A DNA stretch of 50,279 nt from Clostridiales bacterium (GTDB taxonomy: Bacteria > Bacillota > Clostridia > Oscillospirales > RGIG5299): contig JAEEIO010000013.1 of NCBI GenBank assembly GCA_016281405.1, forward strand, positions 1 to 50,279, read 5' to 3'. Below the pieces are notes generated by a model. That model ran no database searches, had not been told where the DNA came from, and saw only the letters and a program-made list of their open reading frames with translations. Both the position numbers and the translations under genes were made by a program. Position 1 is the first letter of the stretch; the number at the start of each line of letters is the position of its first letter. Positions 622 through 24,167 of the stretch are shown here, piece by piece.

Positions 622-650
622 ATTATACATTAAGCGGAGAATAAAGTCAA
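622..650 (-). promoter_or_regulatory. Sigma-A type promoter for the truncated secreted-protein gene
   Basis: Minus strand reads TTGACT (645-650), 17-nt spacer, TATAAT (622-627), about 35 nt upstream of the ATG at 586. Confidence 0.5.
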
Positions 651-654
651 ATAT

Positions 655-682
655 AAACGCCGTCCCGTTCGGAACGGCGTTT
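655..682 (-). terminator. Hairpin terminator after the amidohydrolase gene (end of the long ABC operon)
   Basis: aaacgccgt (655-663) pairs with acggcgttt (674-682). On the minus strand it is followed by a moderately U-rich tail (uauauuug). Confidence 0.5.
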
Positions 683-692
683 ATGATTTTAT

Positions 693-1469
693 TCAGATTT
701 TTACTCTCGGGAAGACCTTCAGAGCGGTCTTATAGAAGATGTTTTCCTTGTCCTCGTCGGTGAGGTCGGCGCCAAGCACAAGGCCCAGCTGCGCCGAGGG
801 GTCGAACCAGAACATATCGGAGCCGAAGACCATCTTATGACTTCCCGCGTGATTTGCGAGGTATTCGACGACGCCGTATTCGAAGGGGTCGCCCGCGATG
901 TCGAGGTAGGCGTTATCGTATTTCTTGGCCAAAGCCGCCGCGGCGCGGACGCCGTCGGTGCGGCCGCCCGAGTGACCGAAGACGAATTTGACGTCGGGAT
1001 ACTCTTTTATATACTCCTCGAAGAGCTCGGGCACCGCGTAGCGCTGATTGGGGTTATAAGACGAAAGCGCCCAGGTGTGCGACATTATGGGAAGGCCGTA
1101 TTTTCTCGCGGCTTCCCACGCGGCGCGGTATCCGGGGTCGTTTCCGAAGACGTGATGCTCGGTCGGATGTATCTTTATCGCGACGAAAGCGGGGTGGTCG
1201 TGGTATTTTTCCATGACCGCGAGGCACCTTTCGCTGTAACGCGGGTCGAAGAGGAAATAGTTAAATATCCTGTGGCCCGACTTCTCATAGTAATAAAGGC
1301 TTTCGTCGGCGCATTTCTCGTATTCGGTGAGGTTTAAGCCCTTGTTGGAGGCCTGGATTATGGCGTCGATCTTAAGCTCGTCCATACGCTTAAGGAGCGT
1401 TTCGAGGCTGTGGTCGAAGCAAAGAAAATCTATTATCTCGCCTATATGGGTATGCGTATCTATTATCAT
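693..1469 (-). CDS. Amidohydrolase-2 family metal-dependent hydrolase (TIM barrel; lactonase/decarboxylase-type)
   Basis: 258-aa ORF starting MIIDTHTHIGE (HxH metal motif), with later ...KIHPTEHH..., ...FGHSGG..., ...VFGSDMFW... SD AGGACAGGTG upstream. Last gene of the operon. Confidence 0.85.
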   Translation of the reverse strand: MIIDTHTHIGEIIDFLCFDHSLETLLKRMDELKIDAIIQASNKGLNLTEYEKCADESLYYYEKSGHRIFNYFLFDPRYSERCLAVMEKYHDHPAFVAIKIHPTEHHVFGNDPGYRAAWEAARKYGLPIMSHTWALSSYNPNQRYAVPELFEEYIKEYPDVKFVFGHSGGRTDGVRAAAALAKKYDNAYLDIAGDPFEYGVVEYLANHAGSHKMVFGSDMFWFDPSAQLGLVLGADLTDEDKENIFYKTALKVFPRVKI

Positions 1470-1505
1470 TTATGACACCTGTCCTTTGAAATAGCTTTAT
1501 TTTTT

Positions 1506-1535
1506 GTCCTTCCGCGGCAGGAGCCGCGGAAGGAC
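1506..1535 (-). other. Perfect 12-bp GC-rich intercistronic stem-loop with no U tract
   Basis: gtccttccgcgg (1506-1517), loop caggag, ccgcggaaggac (1524-1535). Lies between the permease stop (1545) and the amidohydrolase start (1469). It is followed by an A-run in the operon transcript, so it is not a canonical terminator. Confidence 0.6.
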
Positions 1536-1544
1536 AAACGGTGA

Positions 1545-2636
1545 TTATTCGACGAGACCGCTTCTCTCAATGCCCTGGACGAATTTCTTCTGCAAGAAGA
1601 TAAACATGACCATGAGCGGAGTGAGGGTCATAACGCTTCCCGCCATGACCGTCGCCGTATTGACTATATCGTCGTCGGTGACGGGACGTCCGAGCAGCTG
1701 CTCGAGCTCGTCTCTCGTGCGGAGGGACAGCGTGATAAGGGTCTTGATGCCCGAGGATAGGGGCTGCATATTCTGCTTGAAGTAGATGGAGGGCTCGTAG
1801 TAGTCGTTCCAGTGCCAGACTATCGACAAGACGAGGATGACAAGAAGCAGAGGTCTTGCCATCGGGACGACTATTCTGAAGAAGGTCCCGAGGAAGCCGC
1901 ATCCGTCAATTCGCGCCGCCTCCTCCATTTCCTTAGGCATACTGATAAGCGTCTGGCGGGCAAGGAAGATAAACAGTCCGCCTTTGAGGCCGAGGCCGAG
2001 GAAGGAGGGGACGAAGCTGGGTAAGAAGGTATCCGTCCACTTGATGTTCGCGAAGAGGATGTAGCTCGGGATAAGGGTGGTCTGAAGCGGGATGATTATG
2101 GTCAGTATGACCATGAGGAAGAGAAATCCGCGAAGCCTGAACTTATAACGCGCGAGGCCGTAGCCGACGAAGGTGCAGGAGACGAGGTGACCTACCGTGC
2201 AGACGGCGGTTATGAGGAGCGAGTTCCAGATGTAAGTCTTGAACTGCATGAGGGTAAAGGCCATCGAGTAGTTGGCGAAACGCAGGTTTCTCGGTATCCA
2301 TCCTATAGTGGGATCCATAAGGTCGGAGTTTGTCTTCAGAGAGGTGACCGCCATGAAAATAAAGGGATAGAGGAAGATGAAGGCGATGCCTATGAGAAGG
2401 ATATACATTCCGATCCTCAAAGCGGTGCTTCCCCAGAAGCGGGGCTGCTTCGCCTTACGGAGGAACAGCTCCCAGAGCTCTTTGGCCGAGCGGCGCTGTT
2501 TCTTCTGCTTTTCGGGTTTTTCGTTTATCACGTCGTTACCAGTTGTAGCGGCGTTTTTTCGCTTTGCGCATCGCACGTTCATCAGCTCCTTTCGTAGTAT
2601 CGGATCCGTAGCTTCTTCCGATGAAGAGGAAGACAA
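1545..2636 (-). CDS. Carbohydrate ABC transporter permease, MalG-like (second pair) with a charged N-terminal extension
   Basis: Six predicted TM segments and EAA loop EEAARIDGCGFLGTFFRIVVPMARP. The ORF overlaps the upstream permease by 101 nt, so the true start is more likely GTG 2531 (4 nt after the upstream stop) or ATG 2582. Confidence 0.85.
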   Translation of the reverse strand: MSSSSSEEATDPILRKELMNVRCAKRKNAATTGNDVINEKPEKQKKQRRSAKELWELFLRKAKQPRFWGSTALRIGMYILLIGIAFIFLYPFIFMAVTSLKTNSDLMDPTIGWIPRNLRFANYSMAFTLMQFKTYIWNSLLITAVCTVGHLVSCTFVGYGLARYKFRLRGFLFLMVILTIIIPLQTTLIPSYILFANIKWTDTFLPSFVPSFLGLGLKGGLFIFLARQTLISMPKEMEEAARIDGCGFLGTFFRIVVPMARPLLLVILVLSIVWHWNDYYEPSIYFKQNMQPLSSGIKTLITLSLRTRDELEQLLGRPVTDDDIVNTATVMAGSVMTLTPLMVMFIFLQKKFVQGIERSGLVE

Positions 2637-3702
2637 GCCCGACGAATACCAGTATGATCAGGGTGTATATCCACGAGACCGCCGCCGCTTTGTCGAACTG
2701 GTTCTGAGCGAGGGACATATCCTTTATGAGCTGCAGAACGTCGTTATCGACCGAGACGAAGGAGTCCGCTATGGAGTAGATAATGTTGACGACCATCATC
2801 GGCATTATCATGGGCAGCGTGATCTTCCAGAACTTTTCCCACTCCGTCGCTCCGTCGACGCCCGCCGACTCGTAAAGCGAAGGCGATATCGACTGGAGGC
2901 CCGAGAGGAACATGAGTATCTGAACCGAACACGACCACAAAACCGAAACTATGATGCTTAAGAAGTCGTTCACCATCTTGGTGAAGTCTCCGCCGAGATA
3001 GGCTATTACCGAGGGCGGGATAAGCGACGAACTGTTTATCGAGAGCGCGTTGGTGACGGCGCCGAGGGAATAAAGCTGTTCGAGAACGTAGCCCGTGCCG
3101 AGTATGAAGGGGAGGAAGAAGACCACTCGGAAGAAGCCCTTGAACTTTATGTTCCTGCTTATGATTATCGCAAGCAGCAGCGAGAAGATTATTATGAGGG
3201 GTATCTTGACGAAGGTGCCCGAAAGGATGTCGGTCAGGGCTCTGGTAAATCGCACGTCGTTTATGACGACGTCGATATAGTTGTCGAAGCCTATAAAGGA
3301 CATCTTGAGGCCGACTATCATATCGAGCTTGGAGAAGCTTAAGACTATCGACAGGATAAGGGGGAAGGCGAAGAAGGCAAGCAGACCGATCGTGAGGGGG
3401 AGAGTGAAGAAGTAGCCTTCGAGCGCCGCGCGCCTTTCGAGGTTTATAAATCTGTTAAGCCAGACTCTGAACTTCGAGGGGTTCTTCGCGCTCTTTGCGG
3501 CGTGCCTTTCGGCGCGGGTCATGCGCTTCTTCGGCGCCTTCTCCTCCGCGACCTTTTCGGTGACGGGGGCGATTGCCTCTGCCGCCTCCGCGGTCTCTGC
3601 CGCCTCGGTTTTTACCTCTTCGGCGACGGCTTCGGCCGCTTCGGCTTCGGTTTTTATTTCTTCGGCGACTTCCGCGAGGTTTTCGTTATCTTTCTTTTTC
3701 AA
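2536..3702 (-). CDS. Sugar ABC transporter permease, MalF-like (second pair) with a ~75-aa acidic/Ala-rich then basic N-terminal tail
   Basis: 388 aa. EAA loop YESAGVDGATEWEKFWKITLPMIMP and multiple TM segments. The N-terminus EVAEEIKTEAEAAEAVAEEVKTEAAETAEAAEA is encoded by a ~21-bp direct duplication (3600-3680). Confidence 0.85.
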   Translation of the reverse strand: MKKKDNENLAEVAEEIKTEAEAAEAVAEEVKTEAAETAEAAEAIAPVTEKVAEEKAPKKRMTRAERHAAKSAKNPSKFRVWLNRFINLERRAALEGYFFTLPLTIGLLAFFAFPLILSIVLSFSKLDMIVGLKMSFIGFDNYIDVVINDVRFTRALTDILSGTFVKIPLIIIFSLLLAIIISRNIKFKGFFRVVFFLPFILGTGYVLEQLYSLGAVTNALSINSSSLIPPSVIAYLGGDFTKMVNDFLSIIVSVLWSCSVQILMFLSGLQSISPSLYESAGVDGATEWEKFWKITLPMIMPMMVVNIIYSIADSFVSVDNDVLQLIKDMSLAQNQFDKAAAVSWIYTLIILVFVGLVFLFIGRSYGSDTTKGADERAMRKAKKRRYNW

Positions 3703-3718
3703 TGCTTCTCACCCCGTT

Positions 3719-6700
3719 TCATCTGATCTCGAAATCGTAAGCGCCGACCGTGACGCCTTCGATTTGCATGGCGGAGCCGGTATAGTTGATATAGAGCGTT
3801 TTGCCGTTCTCGTATCTCACTATCGCCGAGTTTCCGTTGTTTTCGTGATATATCATCGGCTGATCCCACACGTCGGAAAGCTTTTCGCTGCACTCGGTGT
3901 AGAAGCTGACGATATCTTCTTTCCACTGCCCGTATTCAGAGGAGAAGAGCTTGTTGTAATCGGAGAGCTTGAGGTTTTCGGTGGGTTCCTTGGTTATCTT
4001 ATAATAAGGTATGCTGCCGTATTCCACAAGTCTCAGCCTCTGGACCGTCTGGTCGTAGAAGAGGTTTATGGGCTCGTCGATATAGCCGACGTAGCCGTGG
4101 ATGACCATCTGGACGAAAGGCACCGATTTATAGGTTATATGATACTCGGACGATTTTTCGGGCATGCCCGTTATCATATTGGCGTATTTGAGGGTGTAGA
4201 GCGAGGCTCCTTCGACCGCGAGCAGATCGGTGTTCTCGGCGAGGTCGGCCATCGTTCTGTCCCAACCGTTCAGCGTATCCGTCCTCGTGTGGATAAGGGT
4301 GCTTCCGTTATAGTTCTGGAAGAGGATGTTGCCGACGGTGTTCGCCGCGACGCCGCTGAAGTTTATGGATTTGACGTTCCTTGCGAGCGACTTCATGTTT
4401 CTCTCGACCGCGACGTAGTTTAAGAAGTAGTTTTTGCCGGTGAAGTCGGTGACGGCTATCGAGTTGCCGTAGTTGATTATGTCGTTCTTGGTCGAGAAGC
4501 CGCCGTTATCGATGTTGGCCTTTATGGGCTCGACCTCGAGGAGCGTCTTCGCGCCTATCGACTTGGCGTATTCGGCGTAGCTCCTCGCTCCCGAGGCGCC
4601 GCCGACGGCCGATTCGACGGGCCACGTCGTCGGATATTTCCCGAAGCCGCCTCTCGCGTAGCCGACGAATTTCGCGACTATGTTGTCGACTCCCGCTTTA
4701 TAGAGGTCTTCGGTTATCGTCTTGGCGTCCTGGAAGGAGGTCATCTTGACTATCTTGGTGAAGAGTATCTGGCTCTCCCACGTCGACATAAAGAAGTCGA
4801 GGACTATCGGGATCTTGGTGTTGACCGAGGTGATGTTATCCTTGAGGTCGCCGTTCTTTATGAGGTAGGCGCGGTAGGCGTTCGCGAGGCCGCTGTAGTT
4901 GGCGTCGTCGCCCGAAAGGAAGGCGTATCTCACTTCGTGAGAAATATCGGAGACGGGTTTCTCGCTGTATTTCTTGCCCGCTATCTTCTTGACGTTGATG
5001 CTGCCTATCGTGTTGCCGTAGCTGCCGACCGTTATGTTGGTGGCAAGTATTTCGGTGGTGTAGCGATAGCGGAAACGGAGCGACGAGCGGTAGAGGTCGA
5101 CCGCGTAGCCCGCGGGCGAGGTGACGACCGAAGCTTCGGCGTCGGCGCCAGCGGAGTAGCCGACGACGGCGACCTTATCGGTTTCGTTGACCATGCCGAA
5201 CACGGGGAGGTTGGTGCTCTCTATGCGGGTCTCGTTCCTGCGGTATTTGTCCATATCGAGAACGTCGGTGCCGCCTACCGAGAAGGCGTATTCCTTGGCG
5301 TAGATGCTGTTGACGTTTTCGTTGAAGTTTATCATCATGCCCGAGCCGTCGGGGATGATGGTGTAGCCGTCTTTCCTGCTGTTGCAGGCGCCGAGGAAGG
5401 GGAGAATCTCGATGTCGACTATCTTTCTCGCGGTGTCGCCGGAGCCCTTCTCCTTTATGGAGTCGTTGAGTATCTTGGCGTAGAGGGTGCCGTCAACGAG
5501 GCCGAACTCGACGTCGAAGGATATTTTGGCTTTGGTGAAGTCGAAGGACATTATCAGCTTGCTTCCCGAGATCCTGTAGTCGACCTTGCAGTCGGCCGAC
5601 GACGCCGAGGCGTAGGCGACCTTGGTGCCCGTCGCGGATTCGGAACGGAGCTGGTCGGCGTAGAGGACTACGAGGGAGCGCATGAGGTTCTTCCAGCGCG
5701 GGATGAGGTCGGGATCGGCGATGTCGTATTCGGTTTCGTCGACGCCGGCGCGCCAGAGGTAAGGCTTATCGGGGTTCTGGCTGTCGAGGACGAATATCGA
5801 GTTGCACTGGAGACCGGTGGTGACGGTGACGGTTTCGGTGCCGTAGACGGTGTAGTAGCAGTCTACTTTGACGGTGACCGCGTTGCCTTCCTTACGAAGG
5901 CCGGTGAAGTATTCATAGTCCGCCAAGAACTGCTTCTTTAACTCTTTGAAATCGTTTACGGTCTCTATGGCGTAGTCGTTCACCGTAACCTTGGTGTTTT
6001 CGGGCTTTTCACCGGTGGCGGGGTCTATAATGGTTTCGCCCGTGCCCTTCTTTATTTCGATGGAGTAGTTGATTTTGCTGTAGAGAGGACTGTCGGGGAC
6101 TTCAAATATCTTTTTGAAGTCGGCCTCTTCCATGTCGGCGGGCTTCTTGCGGAGACCCGTCGTCACGCCGAGCTCGGTGTTCCATGCGTTTTCGGTGACG
6201 TAGTCGAAGAAGAAGAGGGCTTTCTCGGCCGCGGTGGCTCCCACGACGACCTCTTCGCCGCTATCGTTCTTTTCCTTGACGTCTTTGATCTCCTCGCTCG
6301 TCGTCTTCTTGGCGGCGCTGCTCTGCTTGGCGTAGCTTATTTTGACGGCGTCGCCGAGCTTTTTGTTCGCCATGACGTTGACGTAGTCGCTGACGGAGTC
6401 GAGCGGAACGTCGTCGACGGCGGTGATGAGAGCGCCCGCCTCGAGGCCTTTGTCGACCATGTCGGGAGTCATGCCGTTCGCGGGCGAGGCAAATCCGCCG
6501 ATTATGAGGCCGGAGGGTCTGACCTCGTCGACCTCGTGGGTGAGTTTGGCTTCGAGCATGCCGGTAAGGCGGTCGGCGACCACCTTGTCGGCGGTGAAGA
6601 CGCTTTCCTTTAAGCATCCGCTGTAACGGACGAAATAGAGTTTGAGGTTTCCGCTCGTCGCTATGGGCGACGCGAAATCTATCTCCATTTCGGCAAGGCT

Positions 6701-6820
6701 TTCGGCGGGGAACTCATAGGTCTGCCGTTCGGCCTTGGTATCGGCGGAGACTATGAAGGAAAGGGCCGGCGCCGTAAGGGCTATCGCTATGAGGATCGCT
6801 ATAAATCTTTTTAATTTCAT
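3719..6820 (-). CDS. Large secreted protein: signal peptide, PDZ-like domain, C-terminal DUF5696-like (possible glycoside-hydrolase-type barrel) region
   Basis: 1033 aa. Signal peptide MKLKRFIAILIAIALTAPALSFIVSADT. PDZ-like stretch GLIIGGFASPANGMTPDMVDKGLEAGALITAVDDVPLDSVSDYVNVMANKKLGDAVKISY. The C-terminal ~450 aa resembles what I remember of DUF5696 proteins found next to CUT1 ABC genes (from memory, unverified). SD GGAGGCGGAAAG. Confidence 0.6.
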   Translation of the reverse strand: MKLKRFIAILIAIALTAPALSFIVSADTKAERQTYEFPAESLAEMEIDFASPIATSGNLKLYFVRYSGCLKESVFTADKVVADRLTGMLEAKLTHEVDEVRPSGLIIGGFASPANGMTPDMVDKGLEAGALITAVDDVPLDSVSDYVNVMANKKLGDAVKISYAKQSSAAKKTTSEEIKDVKEKNDSGEEVVVGATAAEKALFFFDYVTENAWNTELGVTTGLRKKPADMEEADFKKIFEVPDSPLYSKINYSIEIKKGTGETIIDPATGEKPENTKVTVNDYAIETVNDFKELKKQFLADYEYFTGLRKEGNAVTVKVDCYYTVYGTETVTVTTGLQCNSIFVLDSQNPDKPYLWRAGVDETEYDIADPDLIPRWKNLMRSLVVLYADQLRSESATGTKVAYASASSADCKVDYRISGSKLIMSFDFTKAKISFDVEFGLVDGTLYAKILNDSIKEKGSGDTARKIVDIEILPFLGACNSRKDGYTIIPDGSGMMINFNENVNSIYAKEYAFSVGGTDVLDMDKYRRNETRIESTNLPVFGMVNETDKVAVVGYSAGADAEASVVTSPAGYAVDLYRSSLRFRYRYTTEILATNITVGSYGNTIGSINVKKIAGKKYSEKPVSDISHEVRYAFLSGDDANYSGLANAYRAYLIKNGDLKDNITSVNTKIPIVLDFFMSTWESQILFTKIVKMTSFQDAKTITEDLYKAGVDNIVAKFVGYARGGFGKYPTTWPVESAVGGASGARSYAEYAKSIGAKTLLEVEPIKANIDNGGFSTKNDIINYGNSIAVTDFTGKNYFLNYVAVERNMKSLARNVKSINFSGVAANTVGNILFQNYNGSTLIHTRTDTLNGWDRTMADLAENTDLLAVEGASLYTLKYANMITGMPEKSSEYHITYKSVPFVQMVIHGYVGYIDEPINLFYDQTVQRLRLVEYGSIPYYKITKEPTENLKLSDYNKLFSSEYGQWKEDIVSFYTECSEKLSDVWDQPMIYHENNGNSAIVRYENGKTLYINYTGSAMQIEGVTVGAYDFEIR

Positions 6821-6835
6821 ATCTTTCCGCCTCCT

Positions 6836-9259
6836 TTACAACAGTATCATGCGAATTTCGGTTATTATGCTCTCGACGAAGTTGATGACCTGGCCGATGA
6901 GCGTTATGCCGAGGATGCTGACCATCCAGATGAGAATCATCATAAGGCCTACGACTATGCCGACTCTTATCGTCTTGCCGACGCTGTAGTCGTTCAGCGT
7001 CTTAAGCCCGCCTATCATCAGGAAGAATACCCAGACGGAGGATATCTGTAAAAGTGAGCTCCAGATATCGAACTCGGACTGGCAAAGGACGTGGCTTAAG
7101 GGGATGAGGATCAGCGTCATGAAGATGTAGGGTATCTCGGCCATCGCCGTGGCGTAGAATATCTCCTTGAACTTCGATTCGCCGTCCCATATCGACGTTA
7201 TCGCGATGCTCGCGGCGGCCCACGTTATGGGCGGCAGGAGCATCTTGATGATTTCGAGCGCTATGTTCGCGTTTCTCGGTTCGAGGTCGGCGAGAGGATA
7301 GTGGACGAGGAAGATGAAGGCGAGTCTTACGACTACGACCAGCACGAAGACCACTATCGGCGGCCACCACATCAGTTTGTCGGCCGAGCCTTTTATACGG
7401 TCAAACAGTTTGAAGGGCGACCGGAGCGTGCCGACGAATATCTGAGCGTTTTTCTTGACCGACCATTTCTTTCTGCCCTCTTCGGACGAGAAGGAAAGCG
7501 CGAGGTCGGCCGTCTTGGCTATTCCCTTGAAGAGGAAGAAGACGCCGAAGCCTATCGCGACGGCAACCACTACTATAAGGAAGAAATACTGGCGGAAGGT
7601 CTCGCGGCGCCATTCGCCGAAGGCCTGCGAGTAGCCTGCGCGGTCCTGCGCGAGATAGTAGAGGTCCATGGCCTTTGCGTAGTTGCCGTCCTTGAACTCG
7701 GTCTTGGCGAGGCCGACGTGAGCCATGTCGTAGGTGGAGGTCATCGCGAGGACTTCCTTCCACGTCTCGGAGGCGGCGTCGTATTTGCCTTCGGAGTAGT
7801 AGTTGACGGCTTCGTGGACTTTGGTTATGAAGGCCGTGGGTTTGAATATCTGAATGGAATTGAGGTTTTTATCGAGGACGTAGATGCTGCCCTGGCTGTC
7901 GACTGCGAGCGATTCGGGATATTCGAAGGTGCCCTTCGAGTCGCCCAGACCGCCGAAGACGGTGAGGCAGTTGCCCTCCTGGTCGTATTGATAGAGCTTG
8001 CCGTTGTTTCTCTCGAGAACGGTCACGATGCCCGTATCGTCGACGCATATATCGGCGAAGACCGGGAACTGATAGAGGCCTCTCTCGTTGACGCGCTCGC
8101 CAAACCAGAAGGTCTCGCCGAGCAGGCTCGCCTTAGCGAAGAAGAGAGCGAGGGGGTTGGTGTCGCTCGAGAAGAAGCTCGCGACCAAGGAATCGTAAAT
8201 GCTTCCGGTGCCGCCGCCGCCGTAGTTCTTATATATGTTGTCGCCGACGGAGTTGAGCCTCTTTATCTCGCCGCCCAGGGTGTCCTGCGTGACGGCGTAG
8301 ACGAGGGCGTCTTTACCGAGGGTGATGTTAAGATAGAACTTGGCGTAGGTCTTGGTCTTGCTCTTGACGTATTCGCTGAGGCCCAAAGCTCTGTATATCG
8401 CGAGCTCGAGGTCGAAGGCGACCGAAGCCTGTCCGAAGTAGCCCTTGAATTCGTTGTTGTCGTCGAGAGTCATGACCGACTCCTTGACGACGACGTAAAG
8501 ATAACCGGTCTTGGTCTTGATTATCTTCGCGGGGGCGTAGTTGGTGGATATCTCTTCGTCGGTGATGAGGTCGGAGGTCGGGATACCGTAAACTCTGACG
8601 AGGGAGCCGTCCTGCGCTATCGTGACGATGCGTTTGTTCTCGGTGTCGGCGACGTAGATGTTGTCGTTCTCAAAGTCGGCGATGAATACGCCGCGGGGAC
8701 TCGAGAAGGAGGAGAACTCGTTTACGGTAATCTCTTTGGTGAGGGTCACTTCCCTCTCCTTGACGACCTCTTCGCCGTCAACCGTTTCGGTATACTGTTC
8801 GACGCCCTGCTTTTCGCCCGTCTTGACGGTCTCCGCAAAGTAGCCGCCCCAGATACCCAAGAGCTCCTGATTTCTGTTGAACTTGACGATACGGTTGTTC
8901 TTGGTGTCGGCCACGTAGATGTTGTCGTAAACGTCGATGAAGATGTCTTCGGGCGAGGTGAGCTCTATTTTATCGCCCACGTCGACCTTGACCTCTTCGT
9001 ATTCCGCCGTTTCGACGGCGTAGCCTTCGGCGTCGACGACGGTCTTTTTGTTGCCCGTGGCTCTCCAGTAGGTGAACTCGGAGAAAGCCTCGATCTCCAT
9101 TATGACCGTTTCGACGTTGTAGGTGGTGGGTATGGCCGTCCTGCCGTCGATGCCGTGAGGGATGTAGTTATCGCTTTCGGCGCCCGCGCCTATGCAGAGA
9201 AGTCCGACGAGGACGAGGGCCGCGAGGGTCACGCTTAAGATACGCTTTACCGTTTTCAT
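6836..9259 (-). CDS. Signal peptide + NHL-repeat beta-propeller + TPR-like segment + C-terminal Yip1-type multi-TM domain
   Basis: 807 aa. NHL-like repeats DNIYVADTKNNRIVKFN, DNIYVADTENKRIVTIAQDG, GSIYVLDKNLNSIQIFKP. Then a TM segment (FFLIVVVAVAIGFGVFFLF) and about five further TM helices with Yip1-like spacing. Confidence 0.65.
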   Translation of the reverse strand: MKTVKRILSVTLAALVLVGLLCIGAGAESDNYIPHGIDGRTAIPTTYNVETVIMEIEAFSEFTYWRATGNKKTVVDAEGYAVETAEYEEVKVDVGDKIELTSPEDIFIDVYDNIYVADTKNNRIVKFNRNQELLGIWGGYFAETVKTGEKQGVEQYTETVDGEEVVKEREVTLTKEITVNEFSSFSSPRGVFIADFENDNIYVADTENKRIVTIAQDGSLVRVYGIPTSDLITDEEISTNYAPAKIIKTKTGYLYVVVKESVMTLDDNNEFKGYFGQASVAFDLELAIYRALGLSEYVKSKTKTYAKFYLNITLGKDALVYAVTQDTLGGEIKRLNSVGDNIYKNYGGGGTGSIYDSLVASFFSSDTNPLALFFAKASLLGETFWFGERVNERGLYQFPVFADICVDDTGIVTVLERNNGKLYQYDQEGNCLTVFGGLGDSKGTFEYPESLAVDSQGSIYVLDKNLNSIQIFKPTAFITKVHEAVNYYSEGKYDAASETWKEVLAMTSTYDMAHVGLAKTEFKDGNYAKAMDLYYLAQDRAGYSQAFGEWRRETFRQYFFLIVVVAVAIGFGVFFLFKGIAKTADLALSFSSEEGRKKWSVKKNAQIFVGTLRSPFKLFDRIKGSADKLMWWPPIVVFVLVVVVRLAFIFLVHYPLADLEPRNANIALEIIKMLLPPITWAAASIAITSIWDGESKFKEIFYATAMAEIPYIFMTLILIPLSHVLCQSEFDIWSSLLQISSVWVFFLMIGGLKTLNDYSVGKTIRVGIVVGLMMILIWMVSILGITLIGQVINFVESIITEIRMILL

Positions 9260-9272
9260 GCGCGTCGCCTCC

Positions 9273-10208
9273 TTAACCCTTGATGCCCGCGTAGGTCATG
9301 GTCTCGATAACCTTACGCTGCATTATGACGAATATGACTATTGTCGGGAGAGTCATGAGAAGACTGGCCGCCGCGACTATGCCGGCCGTGGCAAGGGTCG
9401 CCGCGCCGGCGCCGCCCGCAAGGCTCTGGAGCGCAAGAGGAAGCGTTCTCATCGACTGCTTGGAGATGAATATGAGGGGCGTGAAATAGTCGTTCCACGA
9501 TCCGACGAAGGAGAAGACTATGAGGGCGGAGAGAGCGGGCTTCTGGGCGGGCATGACAATCTTCCAGAATATCCTGAACTCTCCCGCGCCGTCGATTCGC
9601 GCGGCCTCTATAAGCTCGTAGGGGTATTGGTCTATAAACTGTTTCATGAGGAAGAAGTTGCCCGACGCGCCGACGGAAACTATTATGATGCCGACGTAGG
9701 AGTCGAGCAGGTGCAGGTTTGAAACGACGAGGAAGGAGGGTATTCTCGTGACGTAGGGCGAGAACATGAGGGTCGCTATGACGACGCTGAATATTATGTT
9801 CTTTCCGGGGATGTTGAACTTGGAAAGACCGTAGGCGCCCATCGAGCAGACCAGGCAGGTGCCCGCCACTATGCTGACCGTAAGCACTATACTGTTGAAA
9901 AGATAACGGGTAAAGGGCACGGTCGAGTTCGAAAGAGCCGTAAAGAGGTTGGTGAAGTTATCGAGCGTCGGCTTTTCGACGAAAAACCTCGGAGGATAGT
10001 AGAAAAGCTCGTCGTAGGGTTTCAAGGAGCTTGAAATCATATAGACTATCGGAAGGAGGCAGAAGACGGCGAGAAGTATCATAAAGATATAGAGCAATAC
10101 CCAACCGACCGTTATGTGACGGAAGCCGCGGCGGATATCCTTCATCTTTTCGATAAATCTCTTTTTGAAGGGTTCTTTCGCTATTACTTTTGTCGATTCG
10201 TAATTCAC
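9273..10208 (-). CDS. Carbohydrate ABC transporter permease, MalG-like (first pair)
   Basis: 311 aa, 6 TM, EAA loop IEAARIDGAGEFRIFWKIVMPAQKP. Starts 17 nt after the upstream permease. Confidence 0.9.
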   Translation of the reverse strand: MNYESTKVIAKEPFKKRFIEKMKDIRRGFRHITVGWVLLYIFMILLAVFCLLPIVYMISSSLKPYDELFYYPPRFFVEKPTLDNFTNLFTALSNSTVPFTRYLFNSIVLTVSIVAGTCLVCSMGAYGLSKFNIPGKNIIFSVVIATLMFSPYVTRIPSFLVVSNLHLLDSYVGIIIVSVGASGNFFLMKQFIDQYPYELIEAARIDGAGEFRIFWKIVMPAQKPALSALIVFSFVGSWNDYFTPLIFISKQSMRTLPLALQSLAGGAGAATLATAGIVAAASLLMTLPTIVIFVIMQRKVIETMTYAGIKG

Positions 10209-10225
10209 TTACTTCTCCTCCTTTC

Positions 10226-11161
10226 TCATTCGTCGGTGGATCTGAGGATCCGCATTATTATTTTACCTATTATAAAGGTCATGAGGAAGAGCACGACGGC
10301 TATGGCCGAGGCGTAGCCCATCTGGAAGCGGACGAAGGCGTAGTCGTAAAGGTGGGCGACTATCGTGTGTGCCGCGTAGTTGGGCGAGGGGAAGCCCGCG
10401 ACGTTGACCGCTATGTCGAAGACCGCGAGGGCGCCCGTTACCGAGGTGATGGCGCCGTAGAGGAGCTGAGGCTTCATCGAGGGGAGGATTATATACTGAA
10501 GCTCCTGGAACTTGGTCTTGATGCCGTCTATCCTGCCCGATTCGAGAAGCTCGCGGTTGAGGTTCTGAATACCGGCGAGGAAGACGAGGAAGCCGCCGCC
10601 CATACTCATCCATATCTGGATTATGATTATGACCGTCATAATATAGGCGGGGTTCAAGGTCCACGCGATGGGCTCGGAGATAAGTCCGATATTGAGTAGG
10701 AAGTTATTCAGATAGCCGTATTTATCGCTCGAGAAGACGACCATCCAGATAACCGACATCGCGACGCCCGAGGTGATGGAGGGGATATAGAAGGCGAGGG
10801 CGAAACCGGTCTTGAATTTGAGGTTGTTTATGACCCACGCCGAAACGAAGGACATCAGATAACCCACGGGACCGGTGATTATCGCGAAGGTGAAGGTGTT
10901 TTTAAGGGAGAGGATGAATATATCGTCATCCAGGAAAAGGAGTCTGTAGTTGGTGATACCCGCGAAGGTCGGCGCCTCTATCATATTATAATTGGTAAGG
11001 CTGAGGCCCATCGCGACTATGACCGGGGTGATGGTGAAGACTATGAAGAGGATGAAGAACGGGAGGAAAAAGAGCAGTCCGACCCAGTTTTTCGTAAGCT
11101 TTTTGGGCTTTCTCTTCTTGGCAATAAGCGGGGATTCCACCGCCGCGTTAACAGCGTCCAA
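10226..11161 (-). CDS. Sugar ABC transporter permease, MalF-like (first pair)
   Basis: 311 aa. EAA-like loop LESGRIDGIKTKFQELQYIILPSMKP. TTG start directly abuts the TAA stop of the binding protein, with AAGGAGGG 8 nt upstream. Confidence 0.9.
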   Translation of the reverse strand: MDAVNAAVESPLIAKKRKPKKLTKNWVGLLFFLPFFILFIVFTITPVIVAMGLSLTNYNMIEAPTFAGITNYRLLFLDDDIFILSLKNTFTFAIITGPVGYLMSFVSAWVINNLKFKTGFALAFYIPSITSGVAMSVIWMVVFSSDKYGYLNNFLLNIGLISEPIAWTLNPAYIMTVIIIIQIWMSMGGGFLVFLAGIQNLNRELLESGRIDGIKTKFQELQYIILPSMKPQLLYGAITSVTGALAVFDIAVNVAGFPSPNYAAHTIVAHLYDYAFVRFQMGYASAIAVVLFLMTFIIGKIIMRILRSTDE

Positions 11162-14155
11162 TTATGCTCCCTCCTTTTCGTAAAGATAACCGAAGCCGTA
11201 TTCCTCGTGCTTCATCTTGAGCTCGCGGTTTATTGCTATGACCGCTTCCTCAAGAGCGTCTCTCAGGTTGAGACCGTTCATAACGACCTTGGTCCACGCG
11301 TTGGTGAGGTGTCTTGCGGTGAAGTATCCGCCGAGGACGTAGGGATATTCGTAGACCCACTTTCTCGTCTCGCGGATGACGTTCAGGTCTTCGACGCTCC
11401 AGTTCATCTTGTCGAAGGCGTTAAGGTTGGCGGAGTTCCATCTGGCGGCCTCGCCGACGATGCCCTCGATGCTGACGCCGTATTCGGTCTGGGTCTCTTC
11501 GCTCATCCACCATTTGAGGAGCTCCCAGCATTCGTCGGGCATTTCGGTCCCGCTCATGACGAAGGAGGAGGTGCCGACCGAGCCGCTGTGCGTTCTGTTG
11601 ACCGATTTGGTGCCGTCTTCGTTCTCGACCTCAAGGCCGGGCATAAGGGCTATGGCCCAGCGGCCGTTGAGCTCGGGCGCGGCGGCCTTCAGCTGGATGT
11701 AAGTGGCGAAGCTGCCCATGCCGCAGGGAGTCTCGCCCGTGCGGAATCTGTTATAGAAGTCCTGCGCGACGGGGACTGCGTATTTGGTGAAGAGGTCGGT
11801 CTGTTCCTTCATCGCCATATAGGCTTCGGCGGTGTCGAGACCCGAATAGAGAAGGTCTTCGGTGTAGACGCTGCCGCCGTATTGGAGAAGGTAGGAGGTC
11901 TCGTCACGGCCGAGCGCTATCGTCATTTCTCTGGCGTAGAGGACGGGCAGAACGTAATTGTAAATATCCTGTCTGGACTGGGGGACCTCAAGGCCTAACT
12001 GCTCGAAGATGTCGGTGCGGTAGAAGAAGGCTCTGAAGTCCATCGTCTCGGGAAGACCGTAGATGCCGCCGTTGTAAGTCAGGGGGTTGAAGATGACGGG
12101 GAGGAACCACTCTTTGACTTCCTCGAAGTCGTCGTACTTACTGAGGTCGAGCGTCGCGTGTCTGACGGCGAACTCGGCGGGCGAGCCGCTGTCGGCCGAG
12201 ACGCAGACGTCGGGGACGTTGACGCCGGACGCAATGGCGAGCATCAGCGCGTTGGTCGCGCCCGCGGAAAGCTGACCGGCGGGCATTATGGCGAGCTGAA
12301 CGCCTATGTCTTTCTCGGGAGTGAAGGTGTTGTCGGCGAGTTCCTTGAAGAGCTCGGCCCAGTCGATGCCTCGGGCGATCCATACCTTGAGCACCTTTTC
12401 GGGTATCTTCGCTCCCTCGACGCCCTTTATGCTGTCGTAGTCCTTGACGAAGGAGAGGAAGAAGTTCTTAACGGAAGACGAAAACTTGTCCCAGAAGGAC
12501 GCGACGCGGGACGGGAGCTTGTATTCGTCGGTATATACGGTAAAAATGTCTATCGCAAGAGGTTGTGATTGAAGCGAGGAATAGTAAGTCGAGAGACTCG
12601 TCTGCGCGCTTAGGAAGTCGGTGTCGTAAAGTCTCGCGACGCGGTATTCGTATTTCACGGCGGTGTCGAAGGCGGTCTTCAGATATTTGAAGCTGTTGGC
12701 CATCGAGGGTATTCTGCCGTTCGCGGCGATGTCGACGAGGAAATCGTATTTCCAGGCCATGCTGTCGCTCATTATCTGGAACTTTTTCCGGAAGCCCCTC
12801 TTGTCGTTGCCGTCGTAGAAGCCGTAGTCGTAGTTATAGTCGGGCTTCGAGCCGGTTATGGTGCGTATGTCGCTCATGAAGCCGTTCATAAGCTCCATAT
12901 CGTAGTAGATCGACTGGATGAGCGGGGTGTAGTCGCCCATGACGACGGTCATCGTGATGGTGTGGACGCCCTCGTCGAAATAGTAGTAAACGGGCGCGCC
13001 GTCCACCTCGAGGGTGTAGTTCATCCAGTCTTTTCTTTCGAGATATCTGAACTCGTATTCGACGAACTCGGAGAAAGGCACCTCGCCGTCTATCTCTATC
13101 TTACGGTAGACGGATATGCTGTCGTTATAGGCCTGCCATTCGCGGAAGGCTATCTTATAGGTGCCCGCCTTTTTGACCTCGAAGCTCCAGGTGAGCGCCT
13201 TGCCCGCCTTGACCCAGGTGCCGCTGCCTATTATGTTGAGGATCTTCTTATCCCACTGATAGGGAGAGCAACCGGGGTCGCCGTCGGCCTCGCGGCGGAT
13301 GGCGCTGCCGTTGCGCTCTATCGGGAACTCGGCCTCGAACTCTATAGGCTCAGACGTGGCGGCCTGCTTGTCAAGGCCGTCCTTCTTTAAGGCCGCGGTA
13401 TATTCGGCGTAGGTCATAAGCTGTTTCTGCGGCTTGACGGTGAGGTCGCCGAATACCATGTCGCCCGAATAGTAGACCATCGAGACGGTATGCTCGCCCG
13501 CCTCGAAATAGATGGCTATCGGCATCGCGTAGAAGCCGTAGTAATCCATAAAGCCGGACTCGCGCCACTCCTCGATCTCCACCGCGCGGGGCCTCATCTC
13601 GTCGCCGTCGGTGTTCTTTACACGGACGGCGCCGTTTTCGTCGGTGAAATAGCGGTAGAACATGTGGTTGTCGGCCTCGTAGTAGAGCTTCTCTCCGTCG
13701 AAGAGGAGCTTACGGACGGGGTCGGCGCCGTTGCCCGCGGGGATGAAATAGTCGAGCGAGAACTCGTAAAGTCCCGCTTCGGCAACGGTGAAGGTCCAGG
13801 TCAGCGTTCCGTCCTCATAGGTCCAGAGGGAACCCGTCCTCTTGTCGCCCTCGGGCCCGTAAAGTCCCGTCTCGACGGCGCTGCCGTCCTCTTTCCTGAC
13901 GGTTTCGGGCGTGATGACGACGGTGTTGCTTTCCACGTCCGCGGGGGCGGTATAGCCCGCCTTGAGATAGCTCTCGTAGAGCCTGGTGTAGAAAGGCACG
14001 TCCATCAGCTCGGCGATAAGCTCGTCGGTGTAGGGGTCTTCGACGCCGTAGGTGAATTGCGCGGCGCTTGCGAACAGACCGCAGACCGACGGCATTATGA
14101 GGAACACCGTCAGCACGACCGACAGAAGCCTTGCGAGCTTTCTGCTTGTTTGCAT
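11162..14155 (-). CDS. Giant extracellular solute-binding protein: two CBM-like beta-sandwich modules + CUT1-type SBP domain
   Basis: ORF 11162-14164. I prefer ATG 14155 (GGAAAGGA 9 nt upstream) over TTG 14164. Two similar N-terminal modules (LTWTFTVAEAGLYEFSLDYF... and LTWSFEVKKAGTYKIAFREW...). The C-terminal ~440 aa look like a type-1 sugar SBP (VLKVWIARG..., GLPETMDFRAFFYRTDIF...). Confidence 0.8.
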   Translation of the reverse strand: MQTSRKLARLLSVVLTVFLIMPSVCGLFASAAQFTYGVEDPYTDELIAELMDVPFYTRLYESYLKAGYTAPADVESNTVVITPETVRKEDGSAVETGLYGPEGDKRTGSLWTYEDGTLTWTFTVAEAGLYEFSLDYFIPAGNGADPVRKLLFDGEKLYYEADNHMFYRYFTDENGAVRVKNTDGDEMRPRAVEIEEWRESGFMDYYGFYAMPIAIYFEAGEHTVSMVYYSGDMVFGDLTVKPQKQLMTYAEYTAALKKDGLDKQAATSEPIEFEAEFPIERNGSAIRREADGDPGCSPYQWDKKILNIIGSGTWVKAGKALTWSFEVKKAGTYKIAFREWQAYNDSISVYRKIEIDGEVPFSEFVEYEFRYLERKDWMNYTLEVDGAPVYYYFDEGVHTITMTVVMGDYTPLIQSIYYDMELMNGFMSDIRTITGSKPDYNYDYGFYDGNDKRGFRKKFQIMSDSMAWKYDFLVDIAANGRIPSMANSFKYLKTAFDTAVKYEYRVARLYDTDFLSAQTSLSTYYSSLQSQPLAIDIFTVYTDEYKLPSRVASFWDKFSSSVKNFFLSFVKDYDSIKGVEGAKIPEKVLKVWIARGIDWAELFKELADNTFTPEKDIGVQLAIMPAGQLSAGATNALMLAIASGVNVPDVCVSADSGSPAEFAVRHATLDLSKYDDFEEVKEWFLPVIFNPLTYNGGIYGLPETMDFRAFFYRTDIFEQLGLEVPQSRQDIYNYVLPVLYAREMTIALGRDETSYLLQYGGSVYTEDLLYSGLDTAEAYMAMKEQTDLFTKYAVPVAQDFYNRFRTGETPCGMGSFATYIQLKAAAPELNGRWAIALMPGLEVENEDGTKSVNRTHSGSVGTSSFVMSGTEMPDECWELLKWWMSEETQTEYGVSIEGIVGEAARWNSANLNAFDKMNWSVEDLNVIRETRKWVYEYPYVLGGYFTARHLTNAWTKVVMNGLNLRDALEEAVIAINRELKMKHEEYGFGYLYEKEGA

Positions 14156-14187
14156 CTGCTTCAATCCTTTCCGGGAAAATGATAGAC

Positions 14188-14208
14188 ACTGAAAGTTACT
14201 GTTTCAGT
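14188..14208. promoter_or_regulatory. Perfect 7-7-7 inverted repeat at the operon transcription start (candidate operator)
   Basis: actgaaa (14188-14194), gttactg, tttcagt (14202-14208), immediately downstream of the -10 box of the operon promoter. Confidence 0.45.
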
Positions 14209-14215
14209 ATCTATA

Positions 14216-14243
14216 ATTATATACAAATCGCTTGATTTGTCAA
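14216..14243 (-). promoter_or_regulatory. Strong sigma-A promoter of the ABC/NHL-Yip1/DUF5696-like operon
   Basis: Minus strand reads TTGACA (14238-14243), 16-nt spacer, TATAAT (14216-14221). Confidence 0.7.
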
Positions 14244-14472: not shown

Positions 14473-14502
14473 AAAAAAACGGAGGAAAATCCTCCGTTTT
14501 TT
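14473..14502 (-). terminator. Bidirectional rho-independent terminator after the URO-D-like gene
   Basis: cggagga (14480-14486), loop aaa, tcctccg (14490-14496), flanked by A7 and T6 runs. Confidence 0.8.
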
Positions 14503-14514
14503 AATCTTTATGAA

Positions 14515-15520
14515 TTAAACGGCGCTGTTTTCGAGTATGACTTTCTTCGCCCACTCGGCCCATTCGGGCTTTACGCCGATGTTGTCGTAGCCGCCGCCGT
14601 AGTCCTTGGCTATCCAGCCGCCGCCGGCCGCTCTGAAGAGTTTGCACATCTCGAGGGCGCGGGATTCTATGAACTCTTTGTCGCCCGTGGGAAGAACCTT
14701 CTGTATGTCTACGGGTGAGTAGAAAACAACCCTGTCGGCAAACTCGGAGGCAAGCACCTCGGTCGGATAGACGTCGGGCTGGTCGAACTGAAAGACGTCG
14801 ATGCCCGCGTCGATGAGGTCTTTCATAAGGACGTAATTTTTGCCGCAGGAGTGCATGAAGGTCGCCATACCCGCTTCGTGGGCGGCGTCGGCTATCTTGC
14901 GGTAGTAGGGTTTTATAAGCTCTCTGAAGGTGTCGGGAGACGAAGGTGCTTTCCTGCGTGCCGAGGTCGTCGCCCAGAAACCACGCGTCGAAGCCGCATC
15001 CCGCGATGCTTTTGATTATCTGCGCTTCGTGGTCGGAGACCATATCCATAAACTCGGCGACGTGCTCGGGCTCTATAATCATATCCATCAGAGCGTTTGT
15101 CATCAGGCGGGCGTCACGAAGGGTCGAGAAGACCTGACGGCCGACGGCGACTACGAATTTCTCGGAGTGGGCGAAATCGTGCTTAAGGAATTCCTCACGG
15201 TAGTTCGGGTCGAATTCGGGCATTTTGAAGGTGTAGTCGTCCCAGTCCTGAATCACGCCCCTCACGCACTCGCCGTTGGTCTTTCCGTTGAAACGGCCGT
15301 AGATATTGCCGAAAATATCGCGGCGCACCTCGCCCTTGAAGCCAGAGAGCTCCTTGAGTTCGGGGTAGTCGCCCCAGTTTTCGTAGGGGTTGGGTTCGAG
15401 GTTTATATAGCGGCGCGACCAGACCATCGCGAAGTCGGAAGGGCCGCCTATGAAATCGAAGCCGAAGCGGGGCGGATTATCGTGTCTTATAAGGCGTTTG
15501 ATTACTTCTTTCGACGTCAT
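14515..15520 (-). pseudogene. Uroporphyrinogen-decarboxylase (URO-D/MtaA-like) family gene interrupted by a frameshift near 14935-14943
   Basis: ORF 14501-15520 is protein-like up to ...DDLGTQESTFVS, then turns into Arg-rich nonsense. The adjacent frame continues SPDTFRELIKPYYRKIADAAHEAGMATFMHSCGKN... into ORF 14515-14868. The joined length (~335 aa) fits the family. Confidence 0.75.
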
Positions 15521-20735: not shown

Positions 20736-20753
20736 TTTTATTTCCTCCTCCGT

Positions 20754-24074: not shown

Positions 24075-24151
24075 GTTATCATCCTTTCACGGAAAGATTT
24101 CCGCATATAATGGAACATTTTATATTATAAATTATATTGAGTGAATAGTCA

Positions 24152-24167
24152 ATAACAATATTATTAT
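24152..24167. promoter_or_regulatory. AT-rich imperfect palindrome, Fur/PerR-box-like, just upstream of the rubrerythrin -35
   Basis: ATAACAATATTATTAT: 14 of 16 positions are self-complementary around AATATT. Confidence 0.3.

Follow-up and report, generated by a model that had tools for sequence, protein, structure and literature searches.

The usual account of a sugar importer of the ATP-binding cassette (ABC) type in Gram-positive bacteria comprises a single lipoprotein, a pair of permeases and an ATPase. The locus described here is closest to importers of the CUT1 family (TC 3.A.1.1), such as MalEFGK2, the sophoro-oligosaccharide system Lin1841-1843 of Listeria innocua and MsmEFGK with its shared ATPase MsmK. 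We analyzed the first 50,279 nucleotides (nt) of contig JAEEIO010000013.1 from Clostridiales bacterium (assembly GCA_016281405.1), referred to below as the window, whose minus strand carries eight co-directional open reading frames (ORFs), g1 to g8, in one tightly packed operon between positions 653 and 14243. The first seven encode, in order, a giant secreted solute-binding protein (gSBP), a permease pair (F1 and G1), an NHL-propeller/Yip1 membrane protein, a secreted DUF5696 protein and a second permease pair (F2 and G2), and the eighth encodes a metal hydrolase. We consider it probable that this operon is a member of a widespread and apparently uncharacterized seven-gene carbohydrate-uptake cassette of single-membrane bacteria, built from two modules and serving the capture and import of large glycans. 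The cassette shares with CUT1 importers BPD_transp_1 permeases with EAA loops and an SBP_bac_1/8 domain, but differs from them in having two diverged permease pairs in one operon, in a binding protein of ∼1000 amino acids (aa) with two carbohydrate-binding modules (CBMs) of CBM35/6-like type, a coiled-coil linker and no lipid anchor, and in the obligatory placement of the NHL/Yip1 protein and a protein resembling glycoside hydrolase (GH) family 129 between the permease pairs.

Surface machines for glycan uptake are known from other bacteria. The SusCD-type utilisomes of Bacteroidota use an outer-membrane TonB-dependent transporter, and the alginate importer of Sphingomonas A1 is a single ABC importer with small solute-binding proteins (SBPs). 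The cassette is comparable to both by function only, without homology, in the idea of one surface apparatus, encoded within a polysaccharide-utilisation locus and reused for many substrates, in which glycan-binding proteins and at times enzymes work together with a transporter. Among enzymes, the nearest relatives of DUF5696 are those of GH129 and GH101, including the α-N-acetylgalactosaminidase NagBb and the 3,6-anhydro-D-galactosidase DagB of Zobellia, with which it shares a three-domain architecture (TM score ∼0.64-0.66), whereas Pfam files DUF5696 apart and the family has its own invariant motifs and a variable nucleophile position. For the Yip1 domain, the only described bacterial partnership with an ABC system that we found is YknWXYZ of Bacillus, in which a Yip1-domain membrane protein is an accessory of the transporter (PMC4887032). 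YknYZ, however, is a MacB-type exporter with a membrane-fusion protein that protects against a peptide toxin, whereas the Yip1 domain of the cassette carries a large extracytoplasmic NHL propeller and has SBPs and permeases of type I importers as its partners; Pfam and NCBIfam models detect no FtsX, HlyD or ABC_tran domain in the operon. The preliminary description of this DNA, made from its letters without database searches, knew of no described transporter with this architecture, and we likewise found no publication that mentions DUF5696 (PF18952) or describes the cassette, in a search that lay outside the subscription-only literature and does not fully exclude a prior description; the beta-1,2-glucan gene-cluster literature yielded no description of the cassette either. 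What appears to be new is that a sugar importer of ABC type is combined with another translocator and with three uncharacterized accessory parts that are obligatory, the membrane and SBP parts themselves being known from CUT1.

That the seven genes belong together is apparent from a survey in which one genome per species was scanned with a DUF5696 alignment and the best 80 of at least 565 relatives were annotated, using our own ORF calls and hidden Markov models (HMMs) built from the window proteins. Genes 1 to 7 stand in full canonical order at 64 of these 80 species-level loci, and 15 others run into a contig end, the portion present agreeing with this order. The one remaining locus (L020) is circularly permuted and keeps the blocks gSBP-F1-G1 and NHL/Yip1-DUF5696-F2-G2 intact, which indicates that the cassette consists of two modules. 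Homologues of g5 were followed down to 22% identity, and all six distinct metagenomic or metagenome-assembled genome (MAG) contexts keep the cassette order, namely a giant SBP (970-1190 aa), two permeases, a (propeller)-Yip1 protein, DUF5696 and two further permeases. Together these loci cover Bacillota, Chloroflexota and Mollicutes-like lineages. The carriers include Paenibacillus, Cohnella, many Bacillaceae, Clostridia (Oscillospiraceae, Lachnospiraceae, Butyrivibrio), Anaerolineae and other Chloroflexota, Izemoplasmatales and Acholeplasmatales, and within the sample the cassette is confined to single-membrane lineages. An exhaustive HMMER search returns 4077 DUF5696 clusters (50% identity, E ≤ 1e-3). 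The preliminary description had asked whether the synteny is kept in related genomes, and it is strongly conserved; its gene order and domain calls are borne out by Pfam and NCBIfam, and the Yip1 and DUF5696 genes that it described as lying beside CUT1 genes are found there in Paenibacillus, in Lachnospiraceae and in the RefSeq annotation of one plasmid. This plasmid, the 243-kb pNP243 of the cultured rumen bacterium Butyrivibrio fibrisolvens D1, carries the cassette at NZ_CP146964.1 153332-167465 (L091). Genes for a GH43 enzyme, a histidine kinase and a response regulator precede it there and two genes for small SBPs follow it, and RefSeq annotates the cassette order with purely generic names.

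A polysaccharide-utilisation locus of Gram-positive bacteria brings transporter, regulator and glycoside hydrolases together. Many relatives of the operon have this composition, with LacI, AraC or two-component regulators alongside GH144-type, GH3, GH94, GH32, GH38, GH26 or GH43 genes, whereas in the window, among the larger ORFs scanned, neither a regulator nor a recognized carbohydrate-active enzyme is found. Genes flanking the cassette in relatives encode LacI regulators (18 loci) and GH35-like (16), GH144-type (15) and GH3 (14) enzymes together with a 1,2-beta-oligoglucan phosphorylase (13); in Bacillaceae, Cohnella and Chloroflexota these enzymes make up a set for beta-1,2-glucan. GH32 accompanied by fructokinase and AraC-type response regulators is found at five loci, GH38 also at five, and GH26, GH43 and GH51 at three each; the locus specificities of relatives accordingly differ, ranging over beta-1,2-glucan, fructan, mannoside and arabinan. 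The cassette is the only transporter seen within ∼10 kb of the beta-1,2-glucan and fructan loci examined in cultured carriers. Such carriers include Sutcliffiella horikoshii and Fictibacillus nanhaiensis, with beta-1,2-glucan loci, and Paenibacillus baekrokdamisoli, with a GH32 locus. Most flanking hydrolases are without signal peptides, a few loci adding a secreted lipoprotein of GH144 type or GH32, and the cytoplasmic location of most of them implies that oligosaccharides enter the cell uncleaved. The cassette is thus apparently a reusable uptake module through which sizeable oligosaccharides reach the cytoplasm, and the sugar-utilisation context of relatives supports the capture and import of glycans that had been suggested for the operon. 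Cassettes with beta-1,2-glucan-type neighbors occur in Bacillaceae (L021, L022, L026, L029, L032, L033, L040, L067 and L073) and also at L012, L024, L063, L077 and L085; their GH144-type, GH35-like, GH3 and phosphorylase genes lack signal peptides, and only at some of these loci is there a further GH144-type gene, which has a lipoprotein signal.

The gSBP encoded by g1 contains a signal peptide, CBM35/6-like modules at about aa 111-243 and 313-412, a coiled-coil-like helical linker at ∼420-560 and a CUT1-type SBP domain at ∼580-1000. SBP_bac_8 matches aa 632-895 in Pfam (E = 2.5e-15); the SBP domain is confined to the last 420 residues, and one SBP stands for two permease pairs in the operon. 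The sequence matches of g1 in the PDB are to CUT1 SBPs, its best solved relative being the sophoro-oligosaccharide-binding protein Lin1841 (E = 9e-11). An N-terminal family profile matches the CBM35 of cycloisomaltooligosaccharide glucanotransferase (CITase; 5x7g, E = 3.8e-9) as well as the CBM35 of CsxA and the CBM6 of an agarase, and the stretch between the CBMs and the SBP domain matches coiled-coil proteins and designs. CBM_35 or CBM_6 is recognized by Pfam in 8 of 35 g1 homologues, and the N-terminal half is conserved family-wide, 73 giant SBPs carrying more than 400 aa of it. The earlier call of g1 as a CBM-SBP protein is thereby confirmed, with its two CBM35/6-like modules in tandem and a helical linker before the SBP domain. 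With termini read from the sequence, neither g1 nor g5 displays a clear lipobox, an LPXTG motif or another recognizable anchor; family-wide, a lipobox pattern occurs in 10 of 74 giant SBPs, which is about the chance level, versus 59 of 64 small SBPs. Judged by eye, without a predictor, the N-termini of sampled giant SBPs and DUF5696 proteins resemble cleavable signal peptides.

Most relatives accompany module 2 with an ordinary lipoprotein SBP. Across the 65 loci in which both the giant SBP and the second permease pair were detected, a small SBP (435-510 aa) lies directly upstream of the giant SBP in 33 and directly after G2 in 11, a second, ordinary lipoprotein SBP hence being adjacent in 44; in 10 more it lies elsewhere within 10 kb, and 11 lack it. 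The proposal that two complete translocators share one binding protein is consequently not the rule of the family. No second SBP was found anywhere in the window, an absence that this lineage shares with a few others.

Both permease pairs have the composition of CUT1 membrane subunits, a MalF-type and a MalG-type protein each, and the EAA coupling loops are kept in all four as previously noted. The paralogues are only distantly related (g6 is 24% identical to g2, and g7 27% identical to g3), and F1 is separable from F2, and G1 from G2, by HMM score in every locus inspected in detail; this consistent separation and low identity indicate that the duplication is ancient. The first 90 residues of g6 (3433-3702) form a charged low-complexity N-terminal extension rich in Glu, Ala and Lys, and F2-class permeases measure 349-378 aa in close relatives versus ∼285-340 aa at most other loci. 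Apparently fused F2 permeases of 500-800 aa at L011 and L012 were set aside as over-extended ORFs in high-GC DNA overlapping the DUF5696 gene. No ORF resembling an ABC ATPase such as MalK or MsmK is present in the 50-kb window. In CUT1 systems the ATPase is often encoded elsewhere and shared, and its absence is compatible with CUT1 membership. Both pairs are presumably type I ABC importers powered by a shared MsmK-type ATPase encoded elsewhere, as the preliminary description had supposed. Six Paenibacillus loci (L038, L045, L046, L055, L069 and L088) do carry an MsmK-like gene (372-379 aa, motif GPSGCGKST, ABC_tran and OB_MalK domains) directly upstream of the giant SBP gene and co-directional with it, one ATPase gene for two permease pairs, and in the same six the second permease pair is followed immediately by genes for an OmpR-type response regulator and a histidine kinase.

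The g4 protein comprises a signal peptide, an extracytoplasmic NHL beta-propeller (∼aa 40-480), TPR-like helices (483-541), one transmembrane helix and a multi-pass Yip1 domain (610-779). NHL (PF01436) is matched at E = 2.3e-17 (62.5 bits, cut-off 20) and Yip1 (PF04893) at 33.9 bits (cut-off 28.6), the TPR region staying below threshold; sequence matches in the PDB are to the NHL domains of Thin, TRIM71 and PknD. NHL and Yip1 are fused in one gene at 49 loci and split into adjacent NHL and Yip1 genes at 15.

The g5 protein consists of a signal peptide, an N-terminal region (aa 1-415) that is found only in the clade of the window (5 matches) and a DUF5696 domain (aa 417-1033). The domain is matched over model positions 7-612 of 612 (E = 1.3e-137, 460 bits versus 25.6), which upholds the DUF5696 part of the earlier call, whereas the PDZ part, at aa 122-167, is sub-threshold (19 bits versus 27). 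Searched alone against the PDB, the g5 sequence returned weak PDZ-like matches only, and a family profile was needed to reach GH129. This profile matches NagBb over the first part of the barrel (E = 1.8e-8) and yields three collinear segments to NagBb and the GH129-like DagB from the N-domain to the C-terminus, at only 12-14% identity; the Pfam model of DUF5696 also matches NagBb-like fragments. A profile of the C-terminal part of the barrel (g5 aa 772-962) found no match in the PDB, the catalytic half not being alignable in this way. A full-length model from 10 sequences was poor (pLDDT 52) and was replaced by a domain-only AlphaFold2 model from 19 sequences (pLDDT 85.4, pTM 0.88), in which an N-terminal beta-sandwich, a (beta/alpha)8 barrel and a C-terminal beta-sandwich are predicted. 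The top Foldseek matches of this model are DagB/ZgGH129 (5opq; E = 1.9e-28, TM score 0.64/0.60) and NagBb (TM score 0.65/0.66), the matches to GH129 falling within E = 1e-23 to 1e-28 and TM scores of 0.63-0.66, followed by GH101 and GH36-type enzymes. As modeled, DUF5696 has a GH129-like fold.

The catalytic residues of GH129 can be placed on this fold only by remote alignment. As reference, two NagBb-like sequences were stitched from reading frames of frameshifted low-coverage contigs (L089 and L090) and are approximate; they align to the DUF5696 HMM at 52 bits over HMM positions 187-592. The Glu of the GH129 motif SSEEV, which we take to be the acid/base residue E478 of NagBb, aligns with g5 E870 at the end of strand 866-870. 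The nucleophile Asp (motif YLDVF, at the end of beta4) aligns with N827, at the C-terminal end of strand 823-826 in the model, and g5 therefore has Asn in place of Asp. The nucleophile is D435 in NagBb and, equivalently, D486 in DagB (PMC5698469), and D486N, the same Asp-to-Asn change, is the substitution used to inactivate ZgGH129 (entry 8rzk), a change employed in experiments for trapping complexes with substrate. Among 90 family members, column 827 holds D in 20, R in 17, E in 15, G in 12, N in 6, S in 5, A in 5 and Q in 4, with Asp one residue later in a further 18; D or E occupies column 827 in 35 and column 870 in 38. Within the clade of the window the residue is Asn (window and L003) or Glu (L001, L002 and L009), and in the beta-1,2-glucan and fructan clades the residue at the end of beta4 is Asp or Glu. 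Invariant throughout the family are PD491GSG and YGxD519, both in the N-domain, and R846, NxY875, VPF901-902, N919 and E933. D836, in an SD motif, was considered as the nucleophile and set aside, since the HMM alignment and the strand positions of the model point to column 827; it is a conserved loop residue, present in 69 of the 90 members. By this mapping, the canonical GH129 catalytic pair is not constant across the DUF5696 family. Asn at the nucleophile position makes binding or hand-over of the glycan more likely in this organism than standard GH129 hydrolysis, and we moderately favor such a role for g5. That DUF5696 carries out the surface processing suggested in the preliminary description is uncertain: the predicted fold resembles that of GH129 enzymes, but the canonical nucleophile position is Asn here.

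In the mechanism that we propose, module 1 would consist of the giant anchor-less gSBP with its own permease pair F1/G1, and module 2 of the NHL propeller held by Yip1, the secreted GH129-like DUF5696 protein and the diverged pair F2/G2. The CBM modules of the gSBP would capture a large oligo- or polysaccharide at the cell surface. As neither the gSBP nor DUF5696 has a recognizable anchor, both must be retained by something, and the NHL/Yip1 protein, being the only membrane-anchored extracytoplasmic component, is the obvious candidate for a tether or organizer that would keep these two proteins (∼100 kDa each) beside the translocators. DUF5696 would then bind the chain, and may cleave it in some lineages, before the two translocators import the products. 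The gSBP would serve F1/G1, and the small SBP, where present, probably serves F2/G2, which fits its placement after G2 in 11 loci and the blocks of L020. In the window, where F2/G2 has no dedicated SBP, this pair may share the gSBP or be fed through DUF5696 or NHL/Yip1. The window is an atypical member of the family, in that neighboring hydrolases, a regulator and a small SBP are missing and an amidohydrolase gene has been gained. A more ambitious form of the proposal, which we put forward only tentatively, is a surface supercomplex in which NHL/Yip1 would hold the gSBP and a largely nucleophile-less DUF5696 on two ABC translocators, so that very large or cyclic glycans, such as cyclic beta-1,2-glucans and fructan chains, would be captured and taken up virtually uncleaved; such a complex would be to Gram-positive bacteria, in function, what the SusCD utilisome is to Bacteroidota, and would be reused for many substrate specificities.

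Several points weigh against the proposed large-glycan uptake cassette. The survey was anchored on DUF5696 and covers the best 80 of at least 565 relatives, and remoter DUF5696 or Yip1/NHL proteins may have other contexts. Tethering by NHL/Yip1 is suggested by co-occurrence and missing anchors only. In the clade of the window there is no glycoside hydrolase or regulator near the operon, the carbohydrate link being one of homology only, and the heterogeneous flanks of its nearest relatives offer no clue to the substrate. The GH144 type includes exo-acting members (PMC11842490), and cytoplasmic copies do not prove long-chain import. The residue mapping combines the remote 52-bit HMM alignment with predicted secondary structure, and DUF5696 could be active via other residues, since GH129-like enzymes use additional ones, including an Asp of the N-domain (PMC5698469). 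This last point leads to a different reading, that DUF5696 is a true surface glycosidase or transglycosylase with non-canonical or relocated residues, which would cleave outside the cell and leave longer and shorter products to be imported separately, NHL/Yip1 serving as anchor or as a second enzyme. The match of the fold to GH129, GH101 and GH36 hydrolases speaks for it, as do the alignment of E870 with the acid/base residue of GH129, the invariant carboxylates D491, D519 and E933 together with the widely kept D836, and the Asp or Glu at the end of beta4 in the beta-1,2-glucan and fructan clades. Known enzymes of this fold already differ in their catalytic residues, for Asp202 in the N-domain of ZgGH129/DagB is part of the catalytic machinery and the second catalytic residue of NagBb is not conserved there (PMC5698469). 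A nucleophile column so variable among the 90 members, with Asn in the window as in the inactivated D486N enzyme, nevertheless argues for the opposite, and a single hydrolase family would have to serve such unrelated glycans as beta-glucan, beta-fructan, alpha-mannoside and arabinan; we regard this reading as rather unlikely.

Two further explanations concern the cassette as a whole. In the lineage of the window its task might be a housekeeping one, the turnover or salvage of envelope or capsule glycans made by the cell itself, instead of foraging. Such a function would explain the perfect consensus promoter, the lack of regulator and glycoside hydrolases and the neighboring cell-wall genes, and it agrees with the cell-wall amidase, VanY-type and large beta-helix proteins encoded in the window, with the position of the clade and of the Clostridia MAG loci L006-L008, L060 and L082 amid housekeeping genes (mnmA, ribosomal proteins, shikimate) without hydrolases or regulators, and with exopolysaccharide synthesis genes adjoining L004. 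Context is its only basis, however, most cultured carriers have the cassette within regulated catabolic loci, and a conserved repeat behind the promoter (14189-14207) could be the operator for a regulator encoded elsewhere, which together make salvage improbable. It is harder still to credit that the locus holds two independent ordinary ABC importers and two unrelated surface proteins as mere neighbors. Each permease pair would suffice for a CUT1 translocator and most relatives have two SBPs, but the content is kept in all 65 complete loci of the 80, across three phyla and down to ∼22% identity, with an order that varies in L020 only; the genes lie 0-17 nt apart or overlap, and the sole rearrangement preserves both modules.

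The coordinates of the operon and its signals are collected in Table 1. The ORF of g1 as called extends over 11162-14164, its true start likely being the ATG at 14155, and that of g7 over 1545-2636, with a likely true start at the ATG at 2582 that gives a 47-nt overlap with g6. From g1 to g8 the junctions then measure 0, 17, 13, 15 and 16 nt, the 47-nt overlap and 75 nt. An AGGAG-type ribosome-binding site lies 4-9 nt upstream of seven of the eight start codons, g6 having a weaker one (GGGGTGA). The sigma-70 promoter lies directly downstream of the bidirectional terminator of the preceding gene (14474-14502), and the same promoter sequence is found upstream of the orthologous operons in L001 and L009. 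In these two loci the arms of the inverted repeat at or just past the expected transcription start are also kept while the loop differs (CTGAAA(C)-N5-6-TTTCAG), and the promoter, the whole leader and the repeat are conserved in relatives whose proteins are only ∼60% identical. Judged from its sequence, the repeat could be a 5'-terminal stabilizing RNA hairpin or the operator of a distant regulator. A palindrome in the promoter spacer (ACAAATC-N4-GATTTGT) was rejected as an operator, being absent from L001 and L009 and barely beyond what chance would give. No Rfam element and no tRNA was detected in the window, which speaks against a known riboswitch leader. The promoter, the eight co-directional genes and their coordinates had been described correctly, as had the absence of an ATPase and of a regulator, no recognizable example of the latter occurring among the larger window ORFs scanned.

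Table 1. Genes and signals of the operon in the window (g1 and g7 from their likely start codons).
Feature	Position	Strand	Evidence
Sigma-70 promoter, TTGACA-16 nt-TATAAT	14243..14216	-	Consensus match 12/12
Inverted repeat CTGAAAC-N6-TTTCAG, at or just past the expected transcription start	14189..14207	-	Read from sequence
g1, giant secreted solute-binding protein (gSBP), ∼1000 aa	11162..14155	-	Pfam, PDB profile matches
g2, permease F1, MalF/UgpA-like	10226..11161	-	BPD_transp_1, UgpA and GlcT models, EAA loop at E207
g3, permease G1, MalG/UgpE-like	9273..10208	-	BPD_transp_1 E = 2.7e-16, UgpE E = 1.4e-44, EAA loop at E201
g4, NHL-propeller/Yip1 membrane protein	6836..9259	-	Pfam, PDB sequence matches
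g5, secreted DUF5696 protein	3719..6820	-	Pfam, AlphaFold2, Foldseek
g6, permease F2, second MalF/UgpA-like paralogue	2536..3702	-	BPD_transp_1, EAA loop at E278
g7, permease G2, second MalG/UgpE-like paralogue	1545..2582	-	BPD_transp_1, EAA loop at E239
16-bp perfect GC-rich RNA hairpin in the g7-g8 gap (1470-1544)	1503..1538	-	Folding versus shuffles
g8, Amidohydro_2-family metal hydrolase, cytoplasmic	693..1469	-	PF04909 E = 2.1e-28, 100 bits versus cut-off 26.4
Intrinsic terminator ending the operon	684..653	-	14-bp stem, then T-run

The stem-loop previously noticed in the 75-nt gap is a strong hairpin (dG -34.6 kcal/mol, z = -6.06; none of 200 shuffles folds as well). It is followed by an A-run and not by a U-run, and is thus not a canonical terminator. 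A strong hairpin precedes the amidohydrolase gene in all four clade members compared, the window, L001 (∼15198-15228), L003 (∼15100-15137) and L009 (∼15194-15229), with differing stem sequences and an A-rich tract after each, a pattern that suggests differential mRNA stability or processing rather than termination. The amidohydrolase g8 is matched by no NCBIfam, equivalog or subfamily model, and its only solved relative is 3cjp, an uncharacterized amidohydrolase. In the 80-locus survey it is restricted to the clade of the window (5 matches: the window, L001-L003 and L009) and is a clade-specific addition outside the conserved cassette; the terminal lactonase-type step once assigned to it finds no support, as nothing identifies g8 as a lactonase.

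Beyond the operon, the window holds housekeeping genes, among them purA, carB, mnmE/mnmG, lysA and those for cell-wall enzymes, which include an amidase and VanY-type proteins. Downstream, a neighbor on the minus strand (1-586) has a near-consensus promoter (650..622) and encodes a secreted protein that runs off the window, and upstream a 339-aa gene (14501-15520, minus strand) has no Pfam match. A GxDLY/SGNH esterase and three large right-handed beta-helix proteins (NosD/Beta_helix; 554, 1106 and 628 aa) are encoded at 17853-18911 (plus strand), 19071-24074 (minus) and 45865-47751 (plus); the esterase is also found near the orthologous operon in L001 and L002, and these proteins are possible carbohydrate-active partners of the operon. 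In a 1348-aa ORF (27916-31962, minus strand), a full-length large chain of carbamoyl-phosphate synthase (CPSase_L and MGS domains) is followed at the C-terminus by diaminopimelate epimerase (two DAP_epimerase stretches); unless it arose as an artefact of assembly, such a fusion is unusual. Around 24000-28000 lies an island of low GC content (0.44-0.47 versus 0.52-0.60 elsewhere) with several ORFs of 150-230 aa, which may be acquired DNA; the two of these that were scanned (24859-25377 and 25414-25995) have no Pfam match.

Compared with the usual sugar importer, the cassette has three further large components, inherited strictly together, as well as a second translocator. It is also common, as the more than 4000 DUF5696 clusters at 50% identity indicate, and occurs in soil Bacillaceae and Paenibacillus, rumen and gut Clostridia, Chloroflexota and wall-less relatives of Mollicutes. 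DUF5696 gains a structural home in the predicted GH129-like fold and the bacterial Yip1 domain a testable role, and plasmid pNP243 of B. fibrisolvens D1 makes the cassette accessible to experiments in a cultured host. Should the accessory proteins prove necessary, a component would be missing from the present picture of complex-glycan uptake in single-membrane bacteria.

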